DNA of 64,000 nt, taken from assembly GCA_002422025.1 (NCBI GenBank), contig DISV01000004.1, positions 102,578-166,577 on the forward strand, given 5' to 3'. The DNA is from Patescibacteria group bacterium UBA6201 (GTDB lineage Bacteria > Patescibacteriota > Minisyncoccia > Phycocordibacterales > UBA918). A program made the translations under genes and the position numbers. Under the pieces are notes generated by a model. It saw nothing but the letters and a program-made list of their open reading frames with translations. It did not search any database and was not told where the DNA came from. Within the stretch, counting starts at the first letter, position 1; each line of letters opens with the position of its first letter. Positions 13,087 to 62,198 of the stretch are shown piece by piece.

Positions 13087-13088
13087 AA

Positions 13089-15210: not shown

Positions 15211-15347
15211 AAAATGTAAAATAATTTTCCTTACGTTCATTTTACACCCTACACTGTGAAACATTTGAATGTGTGTGAATAACTAGGAACAAAAAAACAG
15301 CAAGCAATCAAGCTCACTGTTTTTTCCTAAACTAAACTCCTAACTAG

Positions 15348-17290: not shown

Positions 17291-17577
17291 AGATATAGTT
17301 TAAAGTTAAAAGCTGAAAGTTGAAAGGCGTGGAGCTGTGTTTAACTTTGCCGTATCCTAACCGAAGATTTTTAGACGCAGTTGCACCAGTGCGAGGTAGT
17401 TTAGGGAGGAAGACGTGAGGTGTGGATACATTTAACAATTTGGATTGTTAAACTTTTTAAATTGGAGGAAATTCGACGGTTTGCAGGAGTTTTTGTGACC
17501 AAGGCGTAGATTGACCTACGGTGCGGGAGCAAAAACTTCGAAAACCTAGGATTTACCCAATTTTGGAAGTTTAGGAT
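17291..17577. repeat. Composite dispersed repeat (Q plus R modules) filling the pilC-pilT spacer
   Basis: gtgaccaaggcgtagattgacctacggtgcggg...cctaggatttaccc is near-identical to 54120-54215 and 51100-51160. Confidence 0.55.
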
Positions 17578-18648: not shown

Positions 18649-18699
18649 AATTTAAATTTAAAGTTGAAAAGTCATTTTCATTTCCAAGCGAGTGCCGAA

Positions 18700-18780
18700 A
18701 GAAAGATTCTCTCACTTTCAAGCGATGCGAATAAAATGAAAGCTTGCTTGCATTTTTGAGTGAGTGAAGAAAGCAAGATT
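18700..18780. promoter_or_regulatory. Two direct repeats AAGATTCTCT(C/T)ACTT upstream of pilT
   Basis: gaaagaaagattctctcactt at about 18705 and gaagaaagcaagattctcttactt at about 18762. Confidence 0.25.
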
Positions 18781-18783
18781 CTC

Positions 18784-19146
18784 TTACTTACATAACTCCT
18801 CTACTCGCTTCACCACCTCACTTGGTATTACCTCGGCTTTAATAATGTAACCCACGGCCATAGCTTCCTTGGCTGCCGACTGGTCGGAGGCCTCACTTTG
18901 ATTAGATAGTACAATGTATTTAGTGTCCCCCGCCAAACCCAGTTTTTTAATCTCTTCCAAAAGCTCAAGTCCACTCATTCCTGGCATTATCATATCCAGC
19001 AAAACAACGTCGTAGTCGGCTTCCTTGATGTGCCGCAGCGCCTCGATCGCGTCTGTAGCGACGTCGACCTGGTGACCAGATTCAATGAATTTGGTAGCGT
19101 ACATATCTCTAAGAAAAGCATCGTCATCTACCAATAAGACTTTCAT
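18784..19146 (-). CDS. Single-domain CheY-like response regulator
   Basis: MKVLLVDDD...DVVLLDMIMPGMSGLELL receiver domain, 120 aa. Confidence 0.8.
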   Translation of the reverse strand: MKVLLVDDDAFLRDMYATKFIESGHQVDVATDAIEALRHIKEADYDVVLLDMIMPGMSGLELLEEIKKLGLAGDTKYIVLSNQSEASDQSAAKEAMAVGYIIKAEVIPSEVVKRVEELCK

Positions 19147-19327
19147 CCCGTTATAAATAAGACGCGAACACGGATGCCCTCGTACCTATGCTTAAAAGGC
19201 TACTAATGTGATTTCGACCACAAATTTCAATACCAAATGATGTGTGTCCGCTATTTCTTACGGGATTCATACGACCTCATTATACAACACACCATTTAAT
19301 TCTGATTGTTAGGTGGGTATAGCAAGA

Positions 19328-21226
19328 TTATTGTTCCTCATCTAAATCAATATCCTTAGACTCACCTTTAGTTGGCATCGGCGCCACTTGTTCTCCCAGC
19401 TCTGTCGGTAGTGCGGTATCTTCGGGTAAAAAATCTTTATCAGTTGCGGTTTCAGCACCTATTTTGGTACCAAAGGTATTAACCTCTTCATAAGGAATAT
19501 CACCTTGAAGGGCTTTCAAAATAGCGTCTTCTTTCATACTCATAAAACCCTTAGCTCGAGCCACATTATAAATCTCCTCTTCACTCCCCTCTCGCAAAAT
19601 AAGATTTTGTATGTCTTGGTCGATTTCCAACACCTCCATCACAGCGATACGTCCCTTAGTACCAGATGCGCAACCAGGAACAGGTACAGCATGATAAATA
19701 TTTTCAAAGGGAGGAAGGCGGTCACTGTAAGCTGCAGGCAAACTTTCAAACTCCTTGGCAAACATCTGCTTAGTACTTTCGTCTATAGGAGTAGCCTGAC
19801 CTGGCTTACAAAGACGTCTAGACAGACGTTGCGCAATTGCTAGTTTCAGAGTCGGTGCAATCAGATATGGGTCCACACCCATATCAATAAGACGCGGCAC
19901 TACTCCAATTGCATTGTTGGTGTGGATAGTGGAAAGTACCAAGTGACCAGTAAGGGCTGCCTGAATAGCCAACTGGGCCGTCTCTTTATCTCGAATCTCT
20001 CCTACCAAGATAACGTCAGGGTCTTGACGGAGTGCAGTTCTAAGACCATTAGCAAAAGTATAGCCAATTTCTGGACGTACTTGTGACTGTGATACACCAT
20101 CAATATTATACTCAATCGGATCTTCAAGTGAGAGAACATTCTTAGTGGCCCTATCCACCTCAGCCAACATAGCGTAAAGAGTGGTTGACTTACCACTACC
20201 GGTCGGACCGGAGATAAGGATAATACCGTATGGTTCATTAATCATTCTGCGGATTGTGGCAAGGTGATTCTTAGACATACCAGTGAGTTCCAAAGTACGG
20301 ATGCCTTTTTCATTATCCAAAATACGCATCACCACCTTTTCTCCGTGGTTGGTAGGAAACGTAGAGACTCGAAAATCAATCTTACGCCCATCGAAGGTAG
20401 CGGAAAACCGCCCATCCTGAGGCTTGCGTCTTTCATCAAGACGCATAGAAGAAAGAATCTTGATACGAGCCACGACAGCAGCCTGCACGTTACGCGGAAG
20501 TTCGATACTAGTTTGCAGGATACCATCAACTCGAAAGCGTACTCGCACCTTTCCGTTAGTCGGCTCAATATGAACGTCAGAGGCTCCCCCATCAACAGCG
20601 TAACGAAGAATAGTTGCGACAATCTTAGTGACTGGTGCGTCTTCTTTGATATGCTCAGTCGACAATTTATCCCCCTCTGCAGACTCGCTCTTTCTTTCTG
20701 CAATTTCTTGGTCAAGCTCACCTTCGAGTGAGGTTAGTGCTTGCCCGACCTCACCAGTGAGATTTTCATAACCGGTCAATAACTTTTGGAGATCTTCTTT
20801 TAATAAAAAAATGAATTTGTAAGGTATACCGTGCTTCGTACTAACGAAGTTCAAAACCTCGCGCAAACGAAAGTCATCGGGATTATTAACACCAACAAGA
20901 AGAGTGTCATTCTCAAGTTTGAGCGGTACAATCTCGTAGTTTTTAGCCGCCTCTACAGGAATAAACTCCAGCACGTTTTGCGGGACAGACTCGTCTTCAG
21001 TCGGAGTATGCGCTGGAATGTTGTAATAACGAGCTAGTCGTTCACGTACCACTTCCTTCGCTACCCCAGCTGACAACAAGGCCTTTTCTGGTGATATTCC
21101 TTGCTCTACCTGCTTACCCACTGTCACCGCTATATCTGGGGTAATAACGCCTTCTTTCTGTAATTCGTTTAAAAAATCCATTTTATGGTTGTTTAGAACA
21201 CGGGAACGTTGTTGTGCCATCTCCAA
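19328..21226 (-). CDS. pilB: Type IV pilus assembly ATPase PilB (GspE family)
   Basis: Walker A GPTGSGKSTT, GspII_E N-terminal domain, tetra-Cys region. Confidence 0.9.
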   Translation of the reverse strand: MEMAQQRSRVLNNHKMDFLNELQKEGVITPDIAVTVGKQVEQGISPEKALLSAGVAKEVVRERLARYYNIPAHTPTEDESVPQNVLEFIPVEAAKNYEIVPLKLENDTLLVGVNNPDDFRLREVLNFVSTKHGIPYKFIFLLKEDLQKLLTGYENLTGEVGQALTSLEGELDQEIAERKSESAEGDKLSTEHIKEDAPVTKIVATILRYAVDGGASDVHIEPTNGKVRVRFRVDGILQTSIELPRNVQAAVVARIKILSSMRLDERRKPQDGRFSATFDGRKIDFRVSTFPTNHGEKVVMRILDNEKGIRTLELTGMSKNHLATIRRMINEPYGIILISGPTGSGKSTTLYAMLAEVDRATKNVLSLEDPIEYNIDGVSQSQVRPEIGYTFANGLRTALRQDPDVILVGEIRDKETAQLAIQAALTGHLVLSTIHTNNAIGVVPRLIDMGVDPYLIAPTLKLAIAQRLSRRLCKPGQATPIDESTKQMFAKEFESLPAAYSDRLPPFENIYHAVPVPGCASGTKGRIAVMEVLEIDQDIQNLILREGSEEEIYNVARAKGFMSMKEDAILKALQGDIPYEEVNTFGTKIGAETATDKDFLPEDTALPTELGEQVAPMPTKGESKDIDLDEEQ

Positions 21227-21262
21227 CTAATCATTTCCGAACACTACCGTCCTGGGTATCAG

Positions 21263-21547
21263 CTACTGTGAGAAAGGATTTGGACGTCCAGCCGACACAC
21301 TCTCCGGATTAGTGTTGAACGAAACTAAAGAGCGGAACCGTGCATCATCAAAAAAGTCCCGCGATAGATCAATATTTTGAATCTCATTCAGACGCATAAG
21401 AAATTCTGTTGCCAAAAGCTCCCCCTCACTTACACCACCATCAACAGCAAGATTAGCTTCTTTGTTAACCGAAAAAATATAATAACCAGCGTAAAGTAGG
21501 CCAGCCAGGACAATGAAAATCAAAAGGTTTTTTAGTAGAGATGACAT
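21263..21547 (-). CDS. Hypothetical small single-TM protein in the PilP position
   Basis: 94 aa with N-terminal TM LLIFIVLAGLLYAGYYIF; located between pilO and pilB. Confidence 0.3.
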   Translation of the reverse strand: MSSLLKNLLIFIVLAGLLYAGYYIFSVNKEANLAVDGGVSEGELLATEFLMRLNEIQNIDLSRDFFDDARFRSLVSFNTNPESVSAGRPNPFSQ

Positions 21548-21555
21548 AATTTATC

Positions 21556-22179
21556 TTAAGACGCTGGCAAGGCGTAAGCCTCTAACAATAATGAGTACTG
21601 TAGCAAACTAGAATCAATTTCTTCAAGCTCAAATTTAAATTCAACTAACTTTAAAGGATAAGCATTTCGCTCCAAGTCACCGAGCATCGCCTTCATCTGT
21701 TCATATGTACCAACTACCTCAACTTCAAACTGCTGAACCACCAACACACCGCTCTGGCTTCCTAATAATTCTTGATCTACCAATGCACCAGTGTTCGGGT
21801 CATAGGCCGCGCTTTCTTCTACCTGGCCGTCGGCAGAATATACCGTAACCGGAAGTACCTCACTCGGGATTATATCTAGAAGCAAAAGACGGTTTCGAGA
21901 AACTATATTAGAGATATCATTTGCGACTAAAGTAGCGTCAATCTCTTTTGGTAAGTAACGTTCTAAAACCGATCGGTCATAGCCACTTAACGCGTTAGTT
22001 TGATTTACGAGAGTTTGTAACTGCTGGTTATAGCGACTAATATTGTCTAAAGCTGTTTGGTACGCCGCTACTTCACTTTGATCGATACGAATCGAATCTA
22101 TTTTTGGCTTCACGACACTAAAAGCGATAATTATCGCTACGACCAACAATGTAATTTGTATACCAACTTGAAATCTCAT
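21556..22179 (-). CDS. pilO: PilO-like inner-membrane pilus alignment protein
   Basis: N-terminal TM, coiled-coil then periplasmic domain; operon position. Confidence 0.5.
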   Translation of the reverse strand: MRFQVGIQITLLVVAIIIAFSVVKPKIDSIRIDQSEVAAYQTALDNISRYNQQLQTLVNQTNALSGYDRSVLERYLPKEIDATLVANDISNIVSRNRLLLLDIIPSEVLPVTVYSADGQVEESAAYDPNTGALVDQELLGSQSGVLVVQQFEVEVVGTYEQMKAMLGDLERNAYPLKLVEFKFELEEIDSSLLQYSLLLEAYALPAS

Positions 22180-22181
22180 AA

Positions 22182-22949
22182 TTATTGATTGACTTCCGTA
22201 GTCGACGTTGCCCCAACCTCCTCATTGTTGGTGACCGTGGATTCTGTAGCCTCGGTAGTGGAAGTAGCACTGTCGGTTATTACAACATTCTCTTCTCCCG
22301 TCAGGGGCTCTGCACCAGTCACAGTACTAGCCTCTTGTTCTGGTAGATAAGCGATACTGGATATATCTCGTGTGTCTGAGAACACGAATGAAAGGGTGGC
22401 TGAGCCAAGTATATTACTATCACCTTCGCCCTCACCAACACTGTAGTCATATTCTACAACCTTAGAGTCCTTGAGTAGACTACTGTTACCAAGAAGATTT
22501 TGTTGACTAATAATTTCTGTGAAATTATCTGCCTGACCAGTTAGATCAATTTGGAATTGATTGTTTGGTAAGTGCTGATAATGCATACCAGAAAAATAAA
22601 TATTTGAGGCAACTATTGCTTCAATGTCGCTAAAGATACGTGAAGGCGCCGAAGAGTTGTTTAAAAGTTCTTCAGCTGCAGCTAATCTCTGATGCAGTTG
22701 CTTAATGTTCTCTATGTCGTCCAAAGAGAACCTCTGTCTTTCTGCCACCATCTGATCACGCAATGAGGATAGGTCTCGGCTTACGATAGCTCCATAGACA
22801 TACACACCAATAACCGAAAACAATGTACTAAAAAAGACAATGTAGCTTATGTAAGCTAGCACGTAGATACGACGAGTACCTTTAGTGCGTTGCACCGTCT
22901 TTACTCCGCTTTTTGGTATGAAAGAAGTGCCTTCAGGCGCCATATACAA
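22182..22949 (-). CDS. pilN: PilN-like fimbrial assembly protein
   Basis: N-terminal TM VLAYISYIVFFSTLFSVIGVYVYGAIV; follows pilM. Confidence 0.5.
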   Translation of the reverse strand: MYMAPEGTSFIPKSGVKTVQRTKGTRRIYVLAYISYIVFFSTLFSVIGVYVYGAIVSRDLSSLRDQMVAERQRFSLDDIENIKQLHQRLAAAEELLNNSSAPSRIFSDIEAIVASNIYFSGMHYQHLPNNQFQIDLTGQADNFTEIISQQNLLGNSSLLKDSKVVEYDYSVGEGEGDSNILGSATLSFVFSDTRDISSIAYLPEQEASTVTGAEPLTGEENVVITDSATSTTEATESTVTNNEEVGATSTTEVNQ

Positions 22950-23082
22950 TTTATTATACGCCCACTCTGCAAATCGCTTTTATTCTCTCTGTGGACAAGG
23001 TTCTTTAAACTATCTGGTTATATGGTCTTTTAGTTTTCTGGTCGGATGGTTTCTGCTAATCCCTACGACTATATTGGCAACT

Positions 23083-24168
23083 TTATTGGAATTTGCGTAG
23101 TGCGGCGCCGAGCGCCACACCAAAAGATGAACCAATGGTTTTTAAAGTATCCTCCATAAACGCTGGATAAGCGACCTTAGCAAAAGGATGTGCCAATTCC
23201 ACTGGCCGAGCAAATCGTTCTTTAATGTACTCTAAGGCGTAAGGAGACGCAGAAACGCCACCCGTGATAACAATACGACCAATCTGTTCATTCAGACGGG
23301 CTTCGTACTGACCAATCAGTCGGCCAAATTCTGAAAGTGAGTTTTCTAAGACTGAAGTCATAGACTGATAGATAACTGGTCCCTGCTCTACCCCTCTATC
23401 AAAGGCACGCTTCTGATTCTCAGCTTCTTCAAAACCTATATTTAAACGTTCTGCGGTCAATCGAGTAATCTCACGACCACCCTGGCCGACGCGATGGAGT
23501 CGCTCCAACATACCGCCGCGGACTATGTATAACTTAGAACTTTTTGCACCAAGATCAATAATGGCTAGCGTCGAATCTTTCTGACGCCACAGAGACCGAA
23601 TCAAACTAAATGCTTCTATTTCTGCCGATTCTCCAGTCATACCAATCGCAGCAAATAGTTCTCGATGCTCTGCTAGAGCCTTATTCTCTATTGCGGCTAC
23701 AAGCACTTCTTTAAGATTACTTTTATTGTCTCCAACTGGGGGCAACTCGGACCAATCTAGAGTAACATCACTTAAAGGTAGTGGAACATACTTGCGAGCC
23801 TCGACAGGAATACGATTCGCTATATCTTCTTGTGGGCCTACGGTCACTGGAATAACAGTCAAGAAACTGGAATATAAGGACATTGCCAAAGCGCCATTAT
23901 GACCACTGACGCCAGACTCACGCATCACGTCGGTTACAGCCTCTATTTTTTTCTCTCTGGACAAGTCCACTATTTCACCCAAAGGCTTAGCATCATAAGG
24001 GCCAAGTTGGAGCTCTCCATATGTACGTAACATTACCGTGCGTGGTGTCTCTTCTATTTCTACAACCTTTACTGAAGCACTACCAACATCAATACCTACA
24101 GTGGTGGCACCAGCGTCTTTTGTCGCCTCTCTCACTCCACCAAATATTTTTTTAAAGGAAAAGACCAT
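23083..24168 (-). CDS. pilM: Type IV pilus assembly protein PilM (actin-like ATPase)
   Basis: VGIDVGSASVKVVEIEE and DLGAKSSKLYIVRGG sugar-kinase/actin fold motifs. Confidence 0.8.
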   Translation of the reverse strand: MVFSFKKIFGGVREATKDAGATTVGIDVGSASVKVVEIEETPRTVMLRTYGELQLGPYDAKPLGEIVDLSREKKIEAVTDVMRESGVSGHNGALAMSLYSSFLTVIPVTVGPQEDIANRIPVEARKYVPLPLSDVTLDWSELPPVGDNKSNLKEVLVAAIENKALAEHRELFAAIGMTGESAEIEAFSLIRSLWRQKDSTLAIIDLGAKSSKLYIVRGGMLERLHRVGQGGREITRLTAERLNIGFEEAENQKRAFDRGVEQGPVIYQSMTSVLENSLSEFGRLIGQYEARLNEQIGRIVITGGVSASPYALEYIKERFARPVELAHPFAKVAYPAFMEDTLKTIGSSFGVALGAALRKFQ

Positions 24169-24254
24169 ATTAGTAACAAGTTCAAAAATAAAAATGTAAA
24201 AAAGTTACAATTTAAAATTGAATGACACTATCATTATAACGTTAATACACAAAA

Positions 24255-24860
24255 ATGCTGGCATTGTTTTTAAAATTCTGTGAGTATGTCTTTCCACAAC
24301 GAGTGGAGTACCGTATGGTACATGACCTTGAAATAGACGATTTATTATTTCACCTATTACCAACCACTCGTGACAATATAGTTTCGTTACTGCCTTTCAA
24401 TGAGCCCATTGTTCGTGCTGTCATACATGAGGCAAAATTCCAACACAACGAAAAGGCTTGGGGTTTACTAGGAGAGGTATTGGTACAATATTTAAAACAC
24501 CACGACAGAGACACGGTACTGATACCAATCCCCTTGTCGGAAACAAGACGTCACAAACGTAAGTATAACCAAGTAGCGGAAATAGCTAAGTGCGCACAAA
24601 AATTATTGGTACATCAGAAACTTAGCAGTGACGCCCTGTTTAGAAAACGCGACACTGTGCCACAAACCACTCTGAATCGCAAAGAAAGATTGAAGAATGT
24701 TGCGGACGCCTTCGGCGTCCGCAACATTCTCCAAATCAAAAACCAAAACGTCATTATCCTCGACGACGTAGCTACGACTGGTGCAACCCTCAAAGCAGCC
24801 CATATGGCTTTAGAGGCACATCACCCCACCTCCATCACTCTCCTTTCTCTGGCTCGTTAG
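24255..24860 (+). CDS. comF: ComF-family protein (phosphoribosyltransferase domain)
   Basis: PRTase motif VIILDDVATTGATL; adjacent to the pilus/competence locus. Confidence 0.7.
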   Translation: MLALFLKFCEYVFPQRVEYRMVHDLEIDDLLFHLLPTTRDNIVSLLPFNEPIVRAVIHEAKFQHNEKAWGLLGEVLVQYLKHHDRDTVLIPIPLSETRRHKRKYNQVAEIAKCAQKLLVHQKLSSDALFRKRDTVPQTTLNRKERLKNVADAFGVRNILQIKNQNVIILDDVATTGATLKAAHMALEAHHPTSITLLSLAR

Positions 24861-29052: not shown

Positions 29053-29140
29053 ACATCCACAGTATAGAGCATGTGTAATACTCTGTCTCCGCGAACAAAA
29101 CAGAATCACCCAACACTTGTGTGTTGGGCTGATTGTTTTG

Positions 29141-29227
29141 CGGAGGATGTGAGATTCGAACTCACGGGCAGTTTTACCCGCCGGCGGTTTAGTAAACCGC
29201 TGGTTTAAACCACTCACCCAATCCTCC
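29141..29227 (-). tRNA. Type II (long variable arm) Ser-like tRNA with apparent anticodon ACU
   Basis: Acceptor GGAGGAT/ATCCTCC, 3-bp D-stem GGT/ACC, anticodon arm GCGGT-TTACTAA-ACCGC, variable stem GGCGG/CTGCC, T-arm GTGAG-TTCGAAT-CTCAC. Confidence 0.5.
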
Positions 29228-29299: not shown

Positions 29300-29481
29300 C
29301 ACGGGGACGGAAGGAGGGATTCAGTCACGAATAATTTTGTAATACAAAATTTTCTCGACCCCAGCTCGCTGGCCTGCGGCATCGCTCCGCTTTTCGAATC
29401 CCTCCGTAAAGCAAAGCAGTTTACTTTACTCCTTTTCCGCCCAATAAAATAACCACCCTAGTGGGTGGTATTTTATACGGG
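29300..29481 (-). repeat. tRNA-associated repeat also present at the tRNA-Asp locus, plus partial and inverted copies of the tRNA-Ser 3' end
   Basis: aaaattttctcgaccccagctcgctggcctgcggcatcgctccg matches 5234-5277 with 3 mismatches; gacggaaggagggattc is a copy of the tRNA 3' end. Confidence 0.55.
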
Positions 29482-38578: not shown

Positions 38579-38955
38579 GGGGATGACAGGCATCGACGGT
38601 TTGAATCGTTCATCCACGCAATGCCGAAATTGGAATCAATTCGTTAAAAGGTTCCATCTGTATCTGCAAACAAAGCAATACCAAGTCCGTTCTCATACGG
38701 ATTCGCCTTCGCTCGAGCGTAAGTTCGCGTAGGTGACGCTAACCTGCCCCACGTCTAATAAGGTTGTGTTAGTGGAATAGCATTGGACTCTAGATAATTG
38801 ATTTGTTCCATTAATTATCCAAATTGTTAGGAACTGCTCGTGTTGAGATTTTGCCAAATTTTTCACTTACCACGCTAAGATTTAAATCTGGCTATGCATT
38901 GTAGAAGTGTATGGACGACCATTCTCGGACGTGGATTCAATTTCCACCATCTCCA
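38579..38955 (+). ncRNA. ssrA: tmRNA (ssrA), standard one-piece
   Basis: 5' GGGGATGACAGGCATCGACGG (acceptor strand plus conserved GGC-ATCGACGG), 3' T-arm GTGGA-TTCAATT-TCCAC, acceptor CATCTCC, discriminator A; internal tag ORF starting GCAAAC and ending ...FAFARA-TAA; adjacent to smpB. Confidence 0.75.
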
Positions 38956-39159
38956 CGAGTACAAAAATCCGCTCGCACGAAAGTGCGGGCGATTTTTGTT
39001 CGTGGAGATGGTGAGAAAGCAAACTGTTTTGCTTTCGTGAAATTGAATCGGGCGGAGCGTTGTGTTTTTGCTCTTACTTAGGCAAAAACACCGCGAGCCG
39101 GGCCTGCAAGCACTTAGTATTTTAAGTGCGGAGCACGAATAAATACTTAGTGACTTGAT

Positions 39160-39184
39160 GGTTCAATTTCCACCATCTCCACCA
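39160..39184 (+). repeat. Near-perfect direct copy of the tmRNA 3' end (attachment-site-like), 205 bp downstream of ssrA
   Basis: ggttcaatttccaccatctccacca versus the tmRNA ggattcaatttccaccatctccac. Confidence 0.7.
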
Positions 39185-39323
39185 ATTCTGAAGCAAAACG
39201 AGCCTTATAAAATAAGGCTCGTTTTGTTGTATTTTGGAGAGATGTTTGGAAATTAGAACCTCTGTTTACAAACTATTATTTTTATAATATTGTTCGACTA
39301 GCTACACAGCTTGGAGACTTGAG

Positions 39324-39872
39324 ATGAAAACCATCTATGTAAGTCCTCGCAACGTGCAGATAACCACGGTAGATGGATGCCAGATGTCCGTCAAACTGGT
39401 ACTGGTACGCGAGGCGGGTGGTTTTATCAGTCTTCAAGACTGGAAACCACCTTCTGAACTGGATGATGTAGAAATTGTGCTGGTGAAGAGGCCCTGCTTC
39501 AAGCGATTACGACTACCACACGATGTAAAGCAAGCGATACTGCATTTCCTGCAACGCTACCACGCAAAACAGGACATATCGTTTGATTGCTACGCATTCG
39601 CCAACTTGGTCAAAGGGGTAAAAGTTCACAAAGTTCCTTTCATGCTCAAATACTGGAACAAGCGACCCAAACCCTGGTTTATTCCAGTTGGTTCAGTTGT
39701 ATTCTTCGAGAGCGGTGAGAACCGCTTCCACCATACAGCTGTCTACATCGGGTATGGACTGTACATTTCAGTCTGGGGTGCTGGTGGCGACCTCGAAGTT
39801 GCAACACTCAAATCAATGAAACGCGACTACGGCGCTGAACGAGTGATGTTCGCTGAACCAGTCGCTACTTGA
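39324..39872 (+). CDS. Island cargo 1: NlpC/P60-like (Cys-His papain-fold) putative hydrolase
   Basis: FDCYAF...VGSVVFFESGENRFHHTAVYIGYG follows the C..H..H spacing of NlpC/P60; GC-rich; own promoter-like module and intrinsic terminator (39869-39905). Confidence 0.45.
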   Translation: MKTIYVSPRNVQITTVDGCQMSVKLVLVREAGGFISLQDWKPPSELDDVEIVLVKRPCFKRLRLPHDVKQAILHFLQRYHAKQDISFDCYAFANLVKGVKVHKVPFMLKYWNKRPKPWFIPVGSVVFFESGENRFHHTAVYIGYGLYISVWGAGGDLEVATLKSMKRDYGAERVMFAEPVAT

Positions 39873-39904
39873 CCGCCTTCCCTTCGGGGTGGGCGGTTTC
39901 TTTT

Positions 39905-39992
39905 TCACCAGAAATCAACAATCTTCAAGAAACTCGGACACTCCATTTCAATCAAAGAGGTTTTAACTTGTAGTAAACTGCTCCACAGAATC
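39905..39992 (+). repeat. Cassette-junction module M1 (degenerate tmRNA 3' end copy)
   Basis: cttcaagaaactcggacactccatttcaatcaaagaggttttaacttgtagtaaactgctccacagaat; about 98% identical to 40813-40897; ctcggac...tttcaat...ctccacagaat echoes the tmRNA ctcggacgtggattcaattt...ctccaccaatt. Confidence 0.6.
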
Positions 39993-40133
39993 TGAAGCAA
40001 AAAGAGCCTTATATAATAAGGCTCTTTTTGTGCAATTTTTGACAGATGTATGGAAACTAGAACCTCTATTTACAGACTACTGTTTTCATTATATTGTTTC
40101 AATAGCTCTTTCAACTAAAACACGAGGTGAAAC

Positions 40134-40739
40134 ATGAGAGAAGTTTCTCTTACGCTCGACTATCTGACCATCGAACAGCTAATCGACCTTATCGACGAGC
40201 CGCATCGTTCGGTCTGCCAGCGCATTCTTGCGGACAACCGCAAACTCTTCGAAACAGCACGCGGTTCAACCCATAACCATCAGACATGGGACGGGGGTTA
40301 CATCGACCATGTCACTGACGGCATGAACTACGTGCGCCACCTCTACACGTTCGATGAGGCCTTCGGTCGACCTTTGCCATTCTCGATGTCAGATGCCCTG
40401 CTGGTCTTCTTCTTGCACGACCTCGAAAAACCTTGGCGTATCCTGGTCGATGAATCGGGGCAAGCATCAAACCGCGAGGGACTCGACACCAAAGCAACCT
40501 ACAAGGCATTTCGTGAAGAAAAGCTGGCATCGTACGGCCTCGAACTGAGCGACATGCAGTTCAACGGCTTCACGTACGTCGAAGGCGAACTTCATGACTA
40601 CACCAGCAAGCGGCGCGTCATGAACGAGCTGGCAGCTTTCGCCCACAAAGTCGACAACTGGTGCGCTCGTGGATGGTATGACTACCCCAAAGCCACTGAT
40701 GACGAGTGGACGGGCGCTGGTCGGATACGCACCACGTAA
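40134..40739 (+). CDS. Island cargo 2: HD-domain metal-dependent phosphohydrolase
   Basis: STHNHQTWDGGYIDH plus FFLHDLEKP (H..HD..D); about 55% GC versus about 44% surroundings; own promoter module and terminator. Confidence 0.6.
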   Translation: MREVSLTLDYLTIEQLIDLIDEPHRSVCQRILADNRKLFETARGSTHNHQTWDGGYIDHVTDGMNYVRHLYTFDEAFGRPLPFSMSDALLVFFLHDLEKPWRILVDESGQASNREGLDTKATYKAFREEKLASYGLELSDMQFNGFTYVEGELHDYTSKRRVMNELAAFAHKVDNWCARGWYDYPKATDDEWTGAGRIRTT

Positions 40740-40812
40740 CATCGTTACAACAACCACTGAATCTTGAATTGAAAGTCACCCTTTCGTTTCAACGATTGGG
40801 TGGTTTTCTTTT

Positions 40813-40897
40813 TCCCACAAATCCACTACCTTCAAGAAACTCGGACACTCCATTTCAATTAAAGAGGTTTTAACTTGTAGTAAACTGCTCCACAGAA
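40813..40897 (+). repeat. Cassette-junction module M2
   Basis: Near-identical to M1. Confidence 0.6.
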
Positions 40898-41000
40898 TAT
40901 AGAAATATATGGAAGATTAAGAGAGCTTACTCAGGTCTGAGTAAGCTTTCTTATTTTGTATAAAACCAGACATCCATAGTCCTCTACTGTTTTACACAGA

Positions 41001-41361
41001 TTATTTCTTCACACAGTGCAACATAAGGTCATTACCGTCAGGATCAGTGAAAAGCGCCATGTAACAGACAGGATTATCAAGAGTCTCGCCACTAAACACA
41101 ACCCCCCTTATCCTCTAATTCTTTACGTGCTGCTTCTATCTCATCGACATGAAGTGCAATATGAGCGTTCTTCTGTGGCGCGAACGACATGCCCATCTTC
41201 TCTGGTTCCCAGATACCAAAACAGGTGTCCCCTACCCAAAATTCATACTCTGCTTTTGGATCTGGTCTAAGACCTAAGGTGTCTATATAAAACTTCCGCG
41301 ACCGCTCTGAGTCAGTTGACGGCACTCCCACAAAATCAAGTTTAGTGATTTTATTTTCCAT
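41001..41361 (-). pseudogene. Island cargo 3: glyoxalase/VOC-family gene interrupted by a frameshift in a G6/C6 homopolymer
   Basis: N-terminal LDFVGVPSTDSERSRKFY...KGG (41092-41361) continues in another frame as VFSGETLDNPVCYMALFTDPDGNDLMLHCVKK* (41001-41100); the shift lies at cccccc, 41103-41108. Confidence 0.55.
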
Positions 41362-41404
41362 AGTTAAAATTTTAGTGGTTAATTATTTATTAATTGTACT
41401 ACAA

Positions 41405-41448
41405 ATTCACCACCCTCAAGAAATTCTGACACTCCATTTCAATCAAAC
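41405..41448 (+). repeat. Partial junction module M3
   Basis: caccaccctcaagaaattctgacactccatttcaatcaaa. Confidence 0.45.
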
Positions 41449-41635
41449 TAATCCTAACCAAGGACAAACTACTCCACCGATTCAAAACACCACTCTATCG
41501 AGTAGCATTTTGCTACCTATATATAGAAATTAGTTTGAATACCATGTACAAAATAGTATTTTCATTATATTGTTTGCCTCAGTTTTGAGGCTATTGCGCC
41601 AACAAGTACACCAACCCGCACCTTTACAGGAGGCC

Positions 41636-42436
41636 AAAATGGCTTTTAAGATTCGATTGTTCACACAGAAAGACCTCGATCGCATCGAAGCATATCATCG
41701 GGGAGAAATACAAAAACCCCAATGGATAATCGACTGGGAAAAGAAGATTGAAGATGCACGGCTGATACTCGCTGCTGCCGTTCATCAAGAGCTTCTGGAC
41801 CCCCATCAACAAACGCTGTACGTTCAGACTGTCGCTCAGATGATGCATCGGCGAGACCGCCTCTACGACATCTGGATGGAAGAGCTACCTTTTAAGACAT
41901 GGGAAGAACTCGCGAACGAACGTCCACCGTCTTCAGACGATCTGTTTCAATACACAGTTAAGGACACAGAAGACTACCTCAACGGCCCTGGAGTCTCAGC
42001 ATTTGTATGCTTCTTGGACCAACGGTGGAAGGGGTTCCTCAAGGACTTCGCCCATCAATGTCTTCGGGACTGCGACCCACTGATCGAAGAGTCATTCCTT
42101 ATGACTCCAGAAATTCGTCACACACTCTCCTACCCAGAACAAACCTTCGGTACTAGTAATAAGGAAATTCTTGAAGCTCGTCTGATTGAATGGACTAACA
42201 AGAAAATTCACACTGATACACCCTCATACGTCGTGCGGCTACTCGTTGCTAATGTATGGATAGCACTGGACAAAGAAATGAGTGCGCTGACGCAGATGGA
42301 GTTCGCTCGATGTGAAGCTGCGGAACCCAATTTCGAGCGAATGATGAAAGAAAAGGACCCGGCAACCGACCTCTATCTGACACAAGCGCAACGATGGCAG
42401 ATAGAAGTTCTTCTCAAAATGTGGCCAAGTTCATGA
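41636..42436 (+). CDS. Island cargo 4: hypothetical 266-aa protein
   Basis: SD acaGGAGGccaaaATG; stem-loop terminator at 42440-42480; no recognisable domain. Confidence 0.5.
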   Translation, partial: KMAFKIRLFTQKDLDRIEAYHRGEIQKPQWIIDWEKKIEDARLILAAAVHQELLDPHQQTLYVQTVAQMMHRRDRLYDIWMEELPFKTWEELANERPPSSDDLFQYTVKDTEDYLNGPGVSAFVCFLDQRWKGFLKDFAHQCLRDCDPLIEESFLMTPEIRHTLSYPEQTFGTSNKEILEARLIEWTNKKIHTDTPSYVVRLLVANVWIALDKEMSALTQMEFARCEAAEPNFERMMKEKDPATDLYLTQAQRWQIEVLLKMWPSS

Positions 42437-42625
42437 CCCGGCCACCTCGCCGCCTTCCCTCTGGGGGAGGCGGTTTCTTTTATATAGATCAGTTCGTTAA
42501 GTTGTCGCAAATCAACAAACTGATGATTCATATTAGTTTTTAACCACTCCTCTCTATGTTGGTTTAGTATACGGTGAGGTCTAAAGTTAGCTACTTTATT
42601 CATTCAGTTGTTCACAGTGGTATTT

Positions 42626-42654
42626 GACAAAAACACTAACTGGTCACATAATAA
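42626..42654 (+). promoter_or_regulatory. Consensus sigma70-type promoter TTGACA-N17-CATAAT
   Basis: ttgacaaaaacactaactggtcacataat. Confidence 0.4.
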
Positions 42655-42687
42655 ACACAGTTGGGAGGAAACCGGGGAGGAAGTACT

Positions 42688-42792
42688 ATGGAGTCAACAT
42701 GGGCATTGCCGGCAGCGATTTTTTTTGGATATGTCTGCCTGACCATCACTTGCAGTTACTGGTGGACACATTCTGGTCCATCTGACCCACAT
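42688..42792 (+). CDS. Hypothetical 34-aa hydrophobic peptide
   Basis: MESTWALPAAIFFGYVCLTITCSYWWTHSGPSDPH; SD gggaggaag; terminator at 42821-42850; below the ORF-track length cut-off. Confidence 0.3.
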
Positions 42793-42876
42793 TGAAAGTG
42801 GGTCAATCGAAGAATACAGGGTCCGGCGCATCTGCTCCGGACCTTTTGTTATGATATATTCTTAGTATCTTACGGT

Positions 42877-43491
42877 ATGAATTTTTCCCGTACCACAAAA
42901 AAGGTTATCGCTGTTGACTTCGATGATGTTGTAATGCACTTCAGTACTGGATTCTTAACTTTTCATAATCGGTTACACGGAACCAATTTGGTGTACGAAA
43001 ACCTCACTCGTTATGATGACTGGGAACTGACATACGGATGCGACAAGGAAACAATGGCAGGAAGAGCGACTGACTTCTACCACTCCCCCGATCATATGTT
43101 GGTACCACCGGTACCAGGGGCAGTTGAAGCGATTGCGTATTTATCAAAAACATATTCGCTTCAAATAGTGACCAGTCGGCCTGAATCTACTCGCTCGCCG
43201 ACTTTGAAATGGTTGGACAGTCATTTTCCGAAACTTTTTCACGACTTTCATTTCACTAACGGCTACGCGGGAGCCGCTGATGCCAAACTAAGGGCAAAAT
43301 CGGAAGTATGTCGTGAGATTGGTGCCGTAGTGCTGATTGATGACGCAATGAAACATGCTTGTGATGTTGCAAATAGTGGTATTCCCACCCTGCTTCCAAA
43401 CCGTCCATGGAACCAGGGTCCAGAACCGAAAGGAGTATATCGAGTATATTCATGGAAAGAGACCATTAAATGGATTAGTGAGAATGTTTAG
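42877..43491 (+). CDS. Island cargo: HAD-superfamily 5'(3')-deoxyribonucleotidase (NT5C family)
   Basis: VIAVDFDDVV (HAD motif I), ...VTSRPE..., LIDDAMKH; terminator at 43492-43532. Confidence 0.65.
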   Translation: MNFSRTTKKVIAVDFDDVVMHFSTGFLTFHNRLHGTNLVYENLTRYDDWELTYGCDKETMAGRATDFYHSPDHMLVPPVPGAVEAIAYLSKTYSLQIVTSRPESTRSPTLKWLDSHFPKLFHDFHFTNGYAGAADAKLRAKSEVCREIGAVVLIDDAMKHACDVANSGIPTLLPNRPWNQGPEPKGVYRVYSWKETIKWISENV

Positions 43492-43574
43492 GAACAAAAA
43501 CCAGACACACTAGTGTGTCTGGTTTTTGTTCCTTATGGTGTAAAGATTGTTTTGTTATATGTTAAAATCGCGCG

Positions 43575-43985
43575 ATGTCTAAAAAAGATTTTAAGGTTTT
43601 TAAAAGTAGTGCTGGCTTTGGGCTTAGGACACTGCGCGACTGGAAGAAGGGTGACCTGGTAATCGAGTACACTGGAAAGAAAATTACTAACAAAGCCGCC
43701 GATGACAAACCAAACCGTTACCTGTTTGATCTTGATGAGAAATGGACTATAGACGGCTCACCTCGCTCTAACCTCGCCCGCTATATTAATCACTCTTGCC
43801 GACCTAACTGCGAGCCAGTCCACTACACAGATACCAATGAGATAGGTATAGAAGCCTTACGAGATATAAAAACTGACGAAGAACTGACCTACGACTACGG
43901 AAAAGACCACTTTGAGGAATACATAGAGCCATATGGCTGTAAGTGTAGTTACCATATGAAGAAGCAAGGTAAGATTGTGAGCTAG
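43575..43985 (+). CDS. Island cargo: SET-domain protein (putative lysine methyltransferase)
   Basis: NHSCRPNC and ELTYDYG SET motifs, post-SET Cys cluster CKCSYH. Confidence 0.75.
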   Translation: MSKKDFKVFKSSAGFGLRTLRDWKKGDLVIEYTGKKITNKAADDKPNRYLFDLDEKWTIDGSPRSNLARYINHSCRPNCEPVHYTDTNEIGIEALRDIKTDEELTYDYGKDHFEEYIEPYGCKCSYHMKKQGKIVS

Positions 43986-44093
43986 AGAAATCGAGCAGCT
44001 ACTTTTCTACTTCCTATTCCTTATTCACTGATTTGTGTTATATTTTGTCTCAATCAGACTAAAGACTAGCTGGCGCCGCATTAAACATTTTAT

Positions 44094-44786
44094 ATATTAA
44101 GAGAAATCAATCTGAACAAACCAAGAACCTTCATCAACTACAATAAAGACCGTACTCGTATCAATGCCGCCATTAGGGCGAAGGAACTTCGTGTAATCGG
44201 CGCCAAAGGTGAGAACCTTGGTGTATTACTCCTCGACGACGCTAGGAAGGCAGCCGACGAAGCTGGTCTTGACCTAATTGAAATCTCCCCAAACGCCAAC
44301 CCTCCAGTGGCTAAGATAATGGACTTTGGTCAATTTCGTTATGAGACCAAACGTAAGAAAAGTGAGGTTAAAGCCAAATCACACGTTACCGAAACTAAGT
44401 CCGTTCAGGTTAAAGTTATTACCGGCGACCACGACCAGCAACTTAAAGCTCGACGTGCAGCTGAATGGCTTTCCGAAGGTCATCGCGTGAAGGCTGACCT
44501 TTTCCTTTCTGGACGATACAAGTACATGGATGAAGCTTTCTTGAAAGACCGACTGAATCGCTTCCTTAAAATCATTCCGATTGAGTACAAGATTGCTGAC
44601 CCTATCAAGAAGAGCCCAAAAGGTTACACTGTAACCCTAGAACGCGATGGAAAAGCTAAATACATCAAGGGCATAGAACTGGAAGATGTAAAACCAGCTA
44701 AAGTTGAGCCTGACGATAACTCTACAAACACACAAAAGGTGAAAAAGAAGTCATTGGACGAACTTATAGAGGGAGGATTAATCTAG
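44094..44786 (+). CDS. infC: Translation initiation factor IF-3, non-AUG start (AUA at 44094 or AUC at 44106)
   Basis: The in-frame upstream extension reads INLNKPRTFINYNKDRTRINAAIRAKELRVIGAKGENLGVLLLDDARKAADEAGLDLIEISPNANPPVAKIMDFGQFRYE; no in-frame ATG/GTG/TTG sits between the TAA at 44082-44084 and 44307. Confidence 0.8.
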   Translation: MLREINLNKPRTFINYNKDRTRINAAIRAKELRVIGAKGENLGVLLLDDARKAADEAGLDLIEISPNANPPVAKIMDFGQFRYETKRKKSEVKAKSHVTETKSVQVKVITGDHDQQLKARRAAEWLSEGHRVKADLFLSGRYKYMDEAFLKDRLNRFLKIIPIEYKIADPIKKSPKGYTVTLERDGKAKYIKGIELEDVKPAKVEPDDNSTNTQKVKKKSLDELIEGGLI

Positions 44787-45331: not shown

Positions 45332-45505
45332 TCTCCAAAACCAGCGAATTTGTACCGGTTTCGGTCGCTTCACTTGGTCGTCGTAGGTTTACTACGTCTT
45401 CCGCTTGAAGCTCCCTCCAACCGGCACAACTTCATCCGGTTTTGAAAACTAGCAATAATTATCGCTAGTACTAGAAACTTTAAACTGAAAACTAACAACT
45501 AATTT

Positions 45506-45850
45506 ATGTCACGTGTAAAAGGAGGATTGATGGCTCAAAAACGCCGTCGTAACATCCTCGAACAAGTAAAAGGATACCGTTTCGGTCGCTCTAAGAAAAA
45601 GCGTCAGGCCATTGAAGCAATTCATCACTCTGGACTTCACTCTTTCGCTCACCGTAAGGATAAGAAGGCTGACTACCGTTCACTCTGGATTACCCGTATC
45701 AACGCTGCCTTGAAGGCACAAGGTCTCCAATACAGCCGTTTTGTAAAGGCGATGAAGGATAAGGGATTCGCAGTTGATCGTAAAATCCTCGCTACTCTAG
45801 CTAAGGATAAGCCGGAAGTATTTCAACGAGTTGTTGACCAAGTTAAGTAA
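45506..45850 (+). CDS. rplT: 50S ribosomal protein bL20
   Basis: MSRVKGGLMAQKRRRNILEQVKGYRFGRSKK is a classic L20. Confidence 0.9.
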   Translation: MSRVKGGLMAQKRRRNILEQVKGYRFGRSKKKRQAIEAIHHSGLHSFAHRKDKKADYRSLWITRINAALKAQGLQYSRFVKAMKDKGFAVDRKILATLAKDKPEVFQRVVDQVK

Positions 45851-46034
45851 AGTTTCCAAAATCAGGTAAATTCTAGGACTTCAGAAATTTTGCTCGTCGC
45901 CGTATGTTGAATACGGCTCGCTCTCAAAACTTCCTCCAGTCCGTCGAATTTCCACTAATTTTGAAAGATTTAACGAAACCCCGCGCCTAGGCGCGGGGTT
46001 TTTGCTTATTTGTTATTTCTAGTAGGACTGACAC

Positions 46035-59884: not shown

Positions 59885-60017
59885 AAGAAACTTAAAACTT
59901 TCTAAATGAGATGAAGTTGCGTTTGCTGGAGGGAGGAGCTGCGAGCGAGCCGTATTTAACATACGGTGACGAGCAGTCCGACTGAAGCAAATGCAAATTC
60001 GCTCATTTAGGAATGTT
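59885..60017. repeat. Dispersed repeat (Q family) upstream of rplB
   Basis: gagatgaagttgcgtttgctggagggagg...gagccgtatttaacatacggtgacgag...cgactgaagcaaatgcaaattcgc. Confidence 0.55.
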
Positions 60018-62051: not shown

Positions 62052-62077
62052 ATTTTTATACTTAATTTAAGTTTTAA

Positions 62078-62198
62078 AAATTGGATGCAGTTGTGTTTGT
62101 TGGAAGAATTTTTATGAGGAAGGTGTAGTAAACCTACGACGACCGAGTAAAAATTCTGAAACGAATGCAAATGCGCCAATTTATTTAACTTAAAAAGA
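62078..62198. repeat. Dispersed repeat (Q family) between rplC and rplD
   Basis: aaaaattggatgcagttgtg...gtgtagtaaacctacgacgaccgagtaaaaattctgaaacgaatgcaaatgcgcc. Confidence 0.55.

Follow-up and report, generated by a model that had tools for sequence, protein, structure and literature searches.

Directly 3' of the tmRNA gene ssrA of an uncultured CPR bacterium (Paceibacteria/Nomurabacteria-like) lie four small units carrying one gene each and a fifth carrying none, and the terminal six bases of the tmRNA gene recur as the end of every one of the five. The architecture of this array, the cassette family to which it belongs, the patchy distribution of that family and its homology breakpoints at the motif CTCCAC are established here. 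Judging from these sequence patterns, the array probably grew as tiny integrative cassettes, mobilised in trans, were accreted in tandem at a specific site.

Architecture of the ssrA-NT5C locus

Within the window, by which we mean the whole 64-kb stretch of DNA analysed, the array is preceded by ftsH, smpB, a small ORF and ssrA and followed by NT5C and SET. Each gene-bearing unit holds a single ORF, as the original prediction had proposed, and three of these four units are bounded by a module of ~95 nt (M1-M3) and the fourth by a tentative decayed remnant. The features are as follows.

38579-38956, + strand: ssrA (tmRNA), from ARAGORN and Rfam RF00023 (96 bits), terminal sequence ...CCATCTCCAC
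38936-38956, + strand: first copy of a 21-nt direct repeat, TTCAATTTCCACCATCTCCAC, tmRNA T-loop to 3' end
38957-39182, + strand: unit X, non-coding, 226 nt, with the exact 21-nt tmRNA 3'-end repeat on both sides
39183-39323, + strand: P1, 5' module of unit 1, hairpin at 39192-39228
39324-39872, + strand: cargo 1, 182 aa, weakly NlpC/P60-like (Pfam PF00877, E 6e-3, below cut-off)
39873-39986, + strand: terminator T1 (39873-39896) then M1, ending in GCTCCAC at 39980-39986 (nhmmer E 3e-29)
39987-40133, + strand: P2, 5' module of unit 2, with hairpin (39997-40031), inverted arm and promoter-like sequence (40069-40097)
40134-40739, + strand: cargo 2, 201 aa, HD-domain-like fold (predicted structure)
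40778-40893, + strand: weak terminator T2 then M2, ending in GCTCCAC at 40887-40893
40894-40960, + strand: E-type 5' module (ATATAGAAATATATGGAAG...), hairpin at 40918-40953
41001-41361, - strand: cargo 3, glyoxalase/VOC family (Pfam PF00903), frameshift at a G6 run (89 aa + 32 aa)
41385-41477, + strand: M3, ending in ACTCCAC at 41471-41477 (nhmmer E 4e-22)
41478-42474, + strand: unit 4, with promoter part (41544-41575), ORF (41639-42436) and terminator T4 (42449-42474)
42490-42590, + strand: tentative end module of unit 4, possibly of M' type and decayed
42877-43491: NT5C, core gene downstream of the array
43575-43985: SET, core gene downstream of the array

The repeated M and P modules are real, are confined within the 64 kb to the ssrA-NT5C locus and lie far above chance expectation. 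M occupies 39891-39986, 40798-40893 and 41385-41477, with M1 and M2 90% identical and M3 at 63%, and its 27-mer core occurs three times in the 64 kb against none expected. The P copies at 39177-39303 and 39981-40107 share 83% identity over 127 nt and the 32-nt promoter part of P is found again at 41544-41575. P1 contains an inverted arm, GGAGAGATGTTTGGAAATTAGAACCTCT, at 39234-39262 which pairs with the 3' arm of X and the tmRNA (z = -9.6), and a promoter-like TTTACA-17-TATTGT at 39265-39293. The E-type module has no clear inverted arm, doubles as the terminator of the reverse-strand VOC gene and also follows M or X in ~11 other cassettes. Terminators of one uniform style had been proposed for all units; T1 and T4 do have a GC-rich make-up in common, with 80% similarity, and T2 is a weaker terminator. 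The putative end of unit 4 aligns with the M' modules of loci L099 and L103 by eye and with MAFFT, and BLAST returns nothing for it.

Cargo of the units

A hydrolase of NlpC/P60 type is suggested for cargo 1 by PF00877 and by similarity to the endopeptidase-related PDB entry 4xcm (E 8e-4), both matches being weak. Cargo 2 has no Pfam match; its AlphaFold model (pLDDT 75) has the HD protein YhaM as top PDB match (prob 1.0, TM 0.62), in agreement with the HD assignment, and 615 homologues that are 70-91% identical and spread over several CPR classes identify a CPR-wide family. The VOC assignment of cargo 3 stands as a domain match to PF00903 in a reading frame that three-frame translation shows to be broken at the G6 run, and the 265-aa ORF of unit 4 could not be assigned a function. 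Foreign base composition, claimed for the cargo as a whole, applies to cargo 2 (54.6% GC against 45.0 +/- 2.5% for 46 ORFs) and not to the remaining cargo genes at 44-48%.

Unit X carries an exact copy of the tmRNA 3' end

Neither unit X nor the exact 21-nt repeat was mentioned in the original prediction. The repeat occurs twice in the 64 kb (38936-38956 and 39162-39182) against an expectation of zero, so that an intact target and a displaced 3' fragment of it, both among the marks used by Islander, are found at X. The unit opens with a terminator hairpin (38970-38991), followed by an inverted copy of the tmRNA 3' end (39003-39048) that is interrupted by a small hairpin, two more hairpins and the second repeat copy, after which CA follows and CCA is thus encoded. 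The last 6-21 nt of ssrA are the common junction sequence of the units.

X occurs in the loci L001, L094, L095, L107 (twice) and L101 and is missing from L085, L088 and L092, where the tmRNA directly abuts the P hairpin. RNAalifold gave 43 pairs, 19-22 of them with compensatory changes, the junction hairpin has a z of -10.9 and an Rfam search matched no family. X-like structured units were also found 3' of tRNA genes, where a relative has the site unoccupied.

A group I intron in the tmRNA T-loop was considered as the identity of X and rejected: the tmRNA is already complete upstream of X, an intrinsic terminator stands at its start, the 21-nt duplication flanks it and X occurs both in tandem and after M modules. 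Rfam returned no Intron_gpI match at E<=1, a null result that is weak on its own because divergent Patescibacteria introns may evade RF00028 (PMC13011429).

M is a module family of CPR lineages

Using a pattern search and an nhmmer profile we located 34 distinct copies of M across CPR classes, 24 of which end in YYCCAC. The pattern was found on 17 metagenome contigs in arrays with other cargo, and three of the 17 (L094, L095, L107) adjoin a tmRNA. According to the profile the arrays hold from 2 to 6-7 copies at a spacing of 587-1429 bp, the longest being L097 with 6-7 units, and their ORFs are mostly co-oriented and usually stop 0-10 nt before M.

The original prediction took M for a decayed tmRNA 3' end. 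Direct similarity between the two does not exceed that of shuffled sequences, and the idea survives at most for the last third of M and only indirectly, in that this third agrees with the P arm taken in reverse complement (a match reached by 0 of 5000 shuffles) and the P arm in turn pairs with the tmRNA-type 3' arm. RNAalifold of 32 copies found no conserved pairs on the top strand and five weak ones, none compensatory, on the bottom strand; M is conserved in sequence rather than structure, the reverse of attC sites. Judged on its sequence, M is a conserved family common to CPR lineages and not a random scar or a simple decayed tmRNA end.

Variable content between conserved flanks

Six relatives with SmpB 84-92% identical were compared with the window. 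All six keep the order ftsH-smpB-ssrA ... NT5C-SET-infC and in every one the genes between ssrA and NT5C differ. NT5C and SET, originally counted among the cargo, are syntenic core genes and were rejected as cassettes since their order is conserved in all six. Homology of the ssrA region ends at 38956, with the relatives' sequence departing exactly after the tmRNA-terminal CTCCAC, and the native downstream flank of the tmRNA in L085 and L088 corresponds to the first 75 nt of P1 (92%). Neither M (nhmmer) nor X was found in these close relatives; both are present at the equivalent place in L001, a Paceibacteria genome whose SmpB is only 66% identical. Public copies of the window strain are all identical, so the species offers no documented case of a recent gain or loss.

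Individual cassettes recur in unrelated settings. A HigB/HTH toxin-antitoxin cassette was found in six contexts, and its homology sets in directly after the ...TCTCCAC of the preceding unit, which may be M, X or M'. Cassette 2, comprising promoter, ORF, terminator and M, is 82% identical over 828 nt to L110 and L112 from Magasanikbacteria, where its context is not a tmRNA. The shared block (40067-40892) is limited on the right by the end of M; its left limit lies inside P2, which is common to L110 and L112 from 40067 onward, and not at a CTCCAC site. With the variable content and the breaks at CTCCAC, this sharing upholds the serial accretion at the tmRNA 3' end that had been proposed, minus NT5C and SET. 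A defence or host-interaction hot spot, also proposed, is weakly suggested by the recurring toxin-antitoxin cassettes and by L100, where a restriction-modification pair and a ThsA-like gene adjoin M; the cargo in the window has no demonstrated defence role.

No recombinase found in cis in the ORFs scanned

As predicted, no integrase was matched in the window ORFs or M-bearing loci that were scanned. Recombinase Pfam domains were absent from the locus proteins and from 30 window ORFs of at least 140 aa lying outside about 48.7-58.5 kb, several of which matched no Pfam at all, and also from the precomputed domains of L081, which corresponds to window positions 27709-48155. None was matched in the larger ORFs scanned of L093-L100, L102 and L106; L101 and L107 were read as ORF translations only. 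No array showed an integrase fragment. In form the units would suit a cis-mobilisable element (CIME), with att-like ends present and mobility genes absent; however, the window, viral contigs and phage and plasmid collections yielded no helper element whose att sites correspond. No circular form or excision product was seen.

Proposed mechanism and alternatives

Each unit consists of a terminator hairpin, often an inverted arm, a payload and an end module whose final bases, YYCCAC, are also those that close the tmRNA gene. The payload is one gene with its own promoter-like region and terminator or, in X, a conserved structured non-coding core. Under tandem accretion a unit would circularise, joining its end module to its own hairpin start, and a recombinase encoded elsewhere would exchange strands directly after CTCCAC, the partner being the tmRNA end or that of a resident unit. 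Because the exchange would fall just 3' of this motif, each insertion would keep the tmRNA whole, supply a new terminator and make a new target. We infer the circular intermediates, the kind of recombinase and the state of the site, duplex or folded single strand. Counting against this reading are the failure to find a recombinase in the loci scanned or any circular or excised form, the identity of all public copies of the strain, the left limit of the L110 block inside P2, the lack of a clear inverted arm in the E-type module and of a conserved fold in M, and the type IV pilus and ComF-like genes of the genome.

The alternative that survives best, though we think it unlikely, is a hot spot of homologous recombination in which the flanks (ssrA, NT5C) and the ~90-130-nt M, P and E modules serve as portable homology after natural DNA uptake, much as in the Neisseria minimal mobile elements and with no part for a site-specific recombinase. 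Relatives retain the flanks, the conservation of M lies in its sequence as homologous exchange needs, a recombinase was found in no scanned locus, and as the window encodes type IV pilus and competence-type genes (PilB/T/C/M, prepilin peptidase, ComF-like), cassettes could be moved by uptake and homologous recombination in these modules with no dedicated recombinase. The junctions argue otherwise. Unrelated upstream units (tmRNA, X, M, M') are all joined to the same downstream cassette at one point after CTCCAC, where they have just 6-9 nt in common, and the M-P junctions, CTCCAC followed by AGAATCTGAAGC in the window and CTTCCAC followed by CAAATCTGAAGC in L104, copy the native tmRNA-P junction of CTCCAC followed by CAAATCTGAAGC despite only 6-9 nt being common to M and the tmRNA there, which favours site-specific over homologous exchange. 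Homologous exchange also fits poorly with cassette 2 lying in a quite different Magasanikbacteria neighbourhood and with the exact 21-nt target duplication on both sides of X.

That perfect repeat, and the well known tandem islands with ssrA 3'-end repeats (PMC3146451, PMC4898812), would suit remnants of larger tmRNA-targeting islands or prophages that each came with an integrase and were trimmed by deletion in a streamlined genome to one gene and an att scar; we hold this to be improbable, as independent decay would not yield 34 copies, from several CPR classes, of one shared derived module of ~95 nt, uniform unit sizes of 0.6-1.4 kb, ORFs abutting M or the same cassette and M in different arrays, and no array holds an integrase fragment. 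Equally doubtful is a role of M, P and E in expression or insulation (as 3'-UTR element, terminator or promoter) and not in recombination, with neighbouring genes reusing them in an array built by duplication and gene replacement: the terminator hairpins and promoter-like hexamers of P and E and the 3'-UTR-like position of M between stop codon and hairpin in many cassettes would fit, but M is confined to the array within the window, moves with unrelated genes across CPR classes, marks homology breakpoints and lacks a conserved RNA fold.

Comparison with known systems

With integrons, including sedentary chromosomal ones, and with CALINs (attC clusters lacking an integrase) the cassettes share several traits. 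Common to them are co-oriented arrays of 0.6-1.4-kb units with mostly one ORF each (here units 1-4 and L097), a terminal module of ~90 nt set against the stop codon and highly alike within a lineage as are Vibrio VCRs, recurrent toxin-antitoxin cassettes among diverse or unknown cargo and no recombinase inside the array. As originally predicted this is not a classical integron, since M lacks an attC-like fold and the cassettes carry promoter-like modules. Neither intI nor attI lies next to the array, with ftsH, smpB, a small ORF and ssrA upstream and no Phage_integrase in the scanned ORFs; the attC-type imperfect hairpin and paired GTTRRRY/RYYYAAC cores are absent from M (RNAalifold of 32 copies, inspection of the alignment), the core being CTCCAC; and instead of mostly promoterless cassettes expressed from Pc there are P and E modules with putative promoter hexamers and terminators in front of each ORF.

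Islands at ssrA and tRNA genes, and CIMEs, likewise insert at the ssrA 3' end or T-loop, regenerate the gene and accrete in tandem, with ssrA-end repeats marking the unit limits and some units free of integration genes. Dehalococcoides ssrA islands are tandem with ssrA 3'-end repeats, some without integration modules (PMC3146451), and Alteromonas additive flexible islands accrete in tandem (PMC4898812). Such islands are however of 10-100 kb and integrase-founded, whereas the units here are below 1.5 kb and in the scanned loci none has the integrase of its own that Islander looks for. In place of a ~20-nt ssrA repeat there is, except in X, a 95-nt module; coding units share only YYCCAC (6-9 nt) with the tmRNA, whose end the 3' third of M resembles only transitively. 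Neisseria minimal mobile elements similarly consist of one gene or a few, none for mobility, between conserved flanks and vary among strains of naturally transformable bacteria, but exchange via flanking genes and have no internal repeated boundary module or tandem arrays.

Long imperfect palindromes at the junctions, each of a target-like arm, a hairpin and the arm inverted (z from -9.6 to -10.9), whose folding could recreate the target site in duplex form, recall the attC bottom strand and the CTX-phi attP(+) used by XerCD, a likeness that is purely structural, no Xer-type dif-like site being recognised. More tentatively, and with less than even confidence, we suggest a system in Paceibacteria and Magasanikbacteria in which tiny units, made up of terminator, inverted arm, payload and an end that mimics the target, would insert at tmRNA and tRNA 3' ends through a host-encoded or unknown recombinase, with X-type units as minimal and one-gene cassettes as cargo-bearing members and with the long palindrome (target-like end, hairpin, inverted copy) as the site, possibly acting as folded single-stranded DNA. 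If so, CPR bacteria of these two groups hold a previously undescribed gene-capture system; the cassette family looks like integron-like gene capture of an undescribed kind.

A structured non-coding unit and four gene units follow ssrA

The tmRNA gene (ssrA) lies downstream of ftsH, smpB and a small ORF, and its 3'-terminal 21 nt (TTCAATTTCCACCATCTCCAC) are repeated exactly further on, giving two copies in 64 kb where none is expected. The non-coding stretch of 205 nt separating the two copies is called X here, and after X come four units with a single ORF each, among which a 5' module (P) and an end module of about 95 nt (M) recur.

Features of the ssrA locus in the window
38579-38956: complete tmRNA gene (ARAGORN and Rfam)
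39162-39182: exact repeat of the tmRNA 3'-terminal 21 nt
39177-39303 and 39981-40107: P module, its promoter part once more at 41544-41575
39891-39986, 40798-40893 and 41385-41477: M module
Unit 1 cargo: 182-aa protein, weakly NlpC/P60-like
Unit 2 cargo: 201-aa protein, best match of its structure model the HD-domain protein YhaM
Unit 3 cargo: glyoxalase/VOC gene, reverse strand, frameshifted at a G6 run
Unit 4 cargo: 265-aa protein, no detectable relatives of known function

The M and P modules had been described in the original prediction and both are real, at the coordinates listed above; the terminators T1 and T4 resemble each other. The cargo had also been described as compositionally foreign, which applies to the 201-aa gene, the sole outlier with a GC content of 54.6% against 45.0 +/- 2.5%, and to none of the other cargo. 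Sequence searches of the PDB with cargo 2 and cargo 4 returned no matches. The window sequence is represented by one ENA contig and two Logan contigs, all identical, with the Logan contigs ending at the M repeat. The strain is present in SRR5323255, SRR943318 and the source runs of ERZ27315056. The frameshift in the VOC gene (41092-41107, six Gs on the coding strand) leaves pieces of 89 aa and 32 aa, and it points to a pseudogene or, alternatively, to a misassembly of the homopolymer. The interval from the last cassette to the nucleotidase gene NT5C also contains a hydrophobic 35-aa ORF (42688-42795) with a strong GGAGG site, followed by a hairpin at 42819-42845.

X opens with a terminator hairpin. 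The final ~22 nt of the tmRNA come next in inverted form, split by a small conserved hairpin, and after two more hairpins the tmRNA end is repeated in direct orientation. The inverted arm agrees with whichever T-loop variant the local tmRNA has. Nine copies, full or partial, were found at tmRNA genes or M arrays: single ones in the window and in the compared loci L001, L094, L095 and L100 (where the contig end cuts it), two in tandem in L107 and two in L101; weaker or partial profile matches were seen in L105 and in L115, the latter with no RNA gene identifiable beside it. RNAalifold predicted a fold of 43 pairs with compensatory changes in 19-22 of them, and no Rfam family corresponds to X. 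We considered whether X could be a group I intron in the tmRNA T-loop and rejected this on account of the terminator at its start, the flanking duplication, the tandem and non-tmRNA copies and the lack of an Rfam hit.

Long predicted hairpins span the tmRNA/X and X/P junctions (z = -10.9 and -9.6 respectively). P carries an inverted arm of its own, GGAGAGATGTTTGGAAATTAGAACCTCT, which in reverse complement matches the final third of M (0 of 5000 shuffles did as well). Coding cassettes which start with P therefore share the plan of X, namely hairpin, inverted arm, payload and target-like end. The original reading of M as a decayed tmRNA end is not tenable in its plain form, as neither local nor global alignments of M with tmRNA 3' ends rose above shuffles and the sole link is the transitive one through the P arm; a tmRNA origin thus applies at best indirectly and to the last third of the module.

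X-like units at tRNA genes

Within the window, further matches to the profile of X lie 3' of tRNA-Asp and tRNA-Ser(GCT), and direct reading of the sequence gave the following units.

X-like units associated with tRNA genes in the window
5190-5491, minus strand: two tandem units after tRNA-Asp
29303-29444, minus strand: one unit after tRNA-Ser(GCT)
about 2600-2880, minus strand: one unit after tRNA-Thr(GGT)
probably 5640-5800, minus strand: probably one unit after tRNA-Met

Each contains a terminator, inverted and direct copies of the 3' end of its own tRNA and one of two conserved cores, and no Rfam family was found for them. Among close relatives the tRNA-Ser site is empty in L085, where the next tRNA lies 22 nt away, and filled by a type-2 unit in L088 and L092 and by a type-1 unit in the window. 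Judged from this comparison of sequences, the filled and empty states indicate that X-like units are mobile, and such empty-site polymorphism makes their mobility directly testable. X units, each reproducing the 3' end of the tRNA or tmRNA before it, form an unreported class of structured element. A tRNA-Ser gene with the anticodon ACT (ARAGORN; 29140-29227, minus strand), an unusual anticodon with an unmodified A34, is shared with the relatives L004, L085, L088 and L092.

Conserved flanks and a variable interior in relatives

Relatives identified through SmpB are CPR bacteria named in the source as Nomurabacteria, Paceibacteria or Kaiserbacteria, and six of these with 84-92% SmpB identity were fetched for close comparison. 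All six keep ftsH-smpB-ssrA on one flank and NT5C-SET-infC on the other, continuing into rpmI, rplT and RNase J where the locus reaches so far. NT5C and the SET-domain gene, originally counted as cargo, are therefore core genes standing in the same order in every relative. The interval between ssrA and NT5C differs in content from relative to relative (for example PadR-PspC, DUF4386, flavoprotein, DUF305 and unknown ORFs), and in all six alignability is lost precisely 3' of the tmRNA-terminal CTCCAC, which supports the core of the original prediction, serial insertion 3' of ssrA.

Neither M nor X was found in any of the six close relatives. In L085, L088 and L092 the tmRNA continues directly into the first ~60-75 nt of P, which identifies the 5' part of P as the native tmRNA terminator region and X as an insertion. 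The same arrangement as in the window reappears in L001, a Paceibacteria genome with an SmpB identity of only 66%, as tmRNA, X with a flanking 20-nt repeat, P, gene, terminator, M and gene, and here X and P are conserved to about the same degree as coding genes. At the far flank, homology with relatives in the infC region (44100-44786) starts ~200 nt before the first ATG/GTG/TTG ORF (44307). The start codon of infC is usually non-canonical, and the upstream homology would be consistent with such a start.

M marks cassette arrays in other contigs

A search with the M core pattern matched 17 metagenome contigs. An nhmmer profile placed six or seven copies in L097, three in L101, three in L096/L109 and two in several others, at a spacing of 587-1429 bp, and in three of these contigs (L094, L095 and L107) the array adjoins a tmRNA. 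ORFs mostly share the orientation of M, with the stop codon 0-10 nt upstream of it. Rather than the scar that had been proposed, M is a conserved family whose 34 distinct copies have a strong sequence consensus and end in YYCCAC in 24 cases. RNAalifold gave no conserved fold on either strand, and M is therefore not attC-like.

The array cargo includes EamA-type permeases, an acyltransferase, NUDIX proteins and DUF305 proteins. L100 has an M copy immediately preceded (943-5583) by genes for a MamI-type restriction enzyme and an N6/N4 DNA methylase, by one for a ThsA-macro (Thoeris-like) protein and by a 157-aa ORF, and an X unit begins after this M; loci of this kind thus also house defence genes. 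A phage, plasmid or viral origin was rejected, with no match to the M core pattern or to the M, P and X motifs among the viral contigs of IMG/VR and none to window 38900-40140 among INPHARED phages and PLSDB plasmids.

Shared cassettes place the unit boundary at CTCCAC

A cassette encoding a HigB-like toxin and an HTH antitoxin occurs in six array contexts (L097 3482-4089, L101 3775-4382, L107 5544-6151, L099, L103 and L105) at 72-85% DNA identity. In the aligned copies homology starts right 3' of an upstream ...TCTCCAC, and the sequence before it is M in L097, the 3' end of X in L101 and L107 and a variant end module (M') in L099 and L103.

Cassette 2 of the window is likewise shared, at 82% identity over 828 nt, with contigs of a Magasanikbacteria MAG. 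The shared block comprises promoter, 5' UTR, ORF, terminator and M and ends where M ends. The Magasanikbacteria copy is not tmRNA-adjacent; on one side it has a 264-aa ORF that belongs to no known family and is itself preceded by a methyltransferase gene, and on the other a gene with a DNA_binding_1 domain. Members of the cassette 2 protein family are found widely among CPR, with 70-91% identity, and the other members are without M.

At M/P junctions the window reads CTCCAC|AGAATCTGAAGC and L104 reads CTTCCAC|CAAATCTGAAGC, copying the native tmRNA/P junction CTCCAC|CAAATCTGAAGC although M and the tmRNA are identical there over only 6-9 nt. Together the toxin-antitoxin, cassette 2 and M/P junction data locate the boundary between units immediately after CTCCAC. 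A dif-like or short inverted core at this point (YTCCA-N7-TGRAR) was present in some junctions and was set aside as inconsistent.

A possible mechanism and its alternatives

The units stand in tandem, share an end hexamer at which their breakpoints fall, and have a patchy distribution across lineages. In line with the original prediction, no integrase turned up in cis: no recombinase or integrase gene was found among the window ORFs scanned, which lie outside ~48.7-58.5 kb, or among the flanking ORFs scanned in other M-bearing loci, L101 and L107 being read as ORF translations alone.

We propose that a unit circularises, its own YYCCAC end meeting its own hairpin start, which for unit 1 would join the M end ...AAACTGCTCCAC|CAATTCTGAAGC and for unit 2 the same end to AGAATCTGAAGC. 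A recombinase encoded elsewhere would then place the unit 3' of CTCCAC, either at the tmRNA gene or at a unit already resident, and might read the site in duplex form or as a folded strand, the latter as in integron attC or CTX-phi attP. Every insertion would keep the tmRNA intact, add a new terminator for it and make a fresh target, which would account for tandem growth.

The main alternative is that cassettes are swapped by DNA uptake and homologous recombination within the conserved modules. The type IV pilus and ComF-like genes present in the window speak for it; the junctions, at which M and the tmRNA share just 6-9 nt, point to a short specific core, and on these sequences we favour exchange at such a core over homologous recombination. 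The pilus/competence-like cluster (11080-24860) encodes PilB- and PilT-type ATPases, PilC and PilM, together with a prepilin peptidase, several pseudopilins and a ComF-like phosphoribosyltransferase, and is a possible DNA-uptake route for cassettes. Two intergenic repeat families (45340-45445, 15970-16070 and 62065-62155; 45850-45980, 17440-17570 and 59885-59980), with 74-79% identity and in opposite orientations, lie between ribosomal-protein/infC-operon and pilus genes and by eye look unrelated to M, P and X. Decay of ordinary islands which once carried an integrase, or a purely regulatory role for M, is less likely, as neither agrees with units of such uniform size, with a derived module shared among them or with where the breakpoints fall.

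Significance and relation to known systems

CPR bacteria (Patescibacteria) have tiny genomes in which few mobile elements have been recognised, and the route by which they obtain accessory genes is an open question. The locus supplies a searchable signature (M consensus, CTCCAC junction and X core) that marks arrays in several CPR lineages, with toxin-antitoxin genes inside, restriction-modification and Thoeris-like genes beside one M and otherwise cargo mostly of unknown function. No description of such arrays in CPR was found in the literature searched. The original observation was largely correct and its core interpretation holds with three corrections, concerning NT5C and SET, the nature of M and cargo composition. 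There is a realistic chance that the locus, tRNA-associated X units included, represents a distinct capture system. If a site-specific recombinase moves the units this would be a second, independent integron-style solution to gene capture, in which the end of an essential RNA gene serves as docking site, and it would imply a recombinase whose target is short and programmable-looking.

Among known systems the nearest are integron cassette arrays and CALINs, the tandem ssrA islands of Dehalococcoides (PMC3146451) and the additive flexible islands of Alteromonas (PMC4898812). The recurring toxin-antitoxin cassette recalls those of chromosomal integrons; unlike an integron, the locus is without intI, attI and attC structure and its cassettes bear their own promoter-like modules. 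It also fails an Islander-type island test because no integrase was found. Overall it most resembles tandem ssrA islands in a miniaturised and integrase-less form, with a unit size and organisation that are integron-like.
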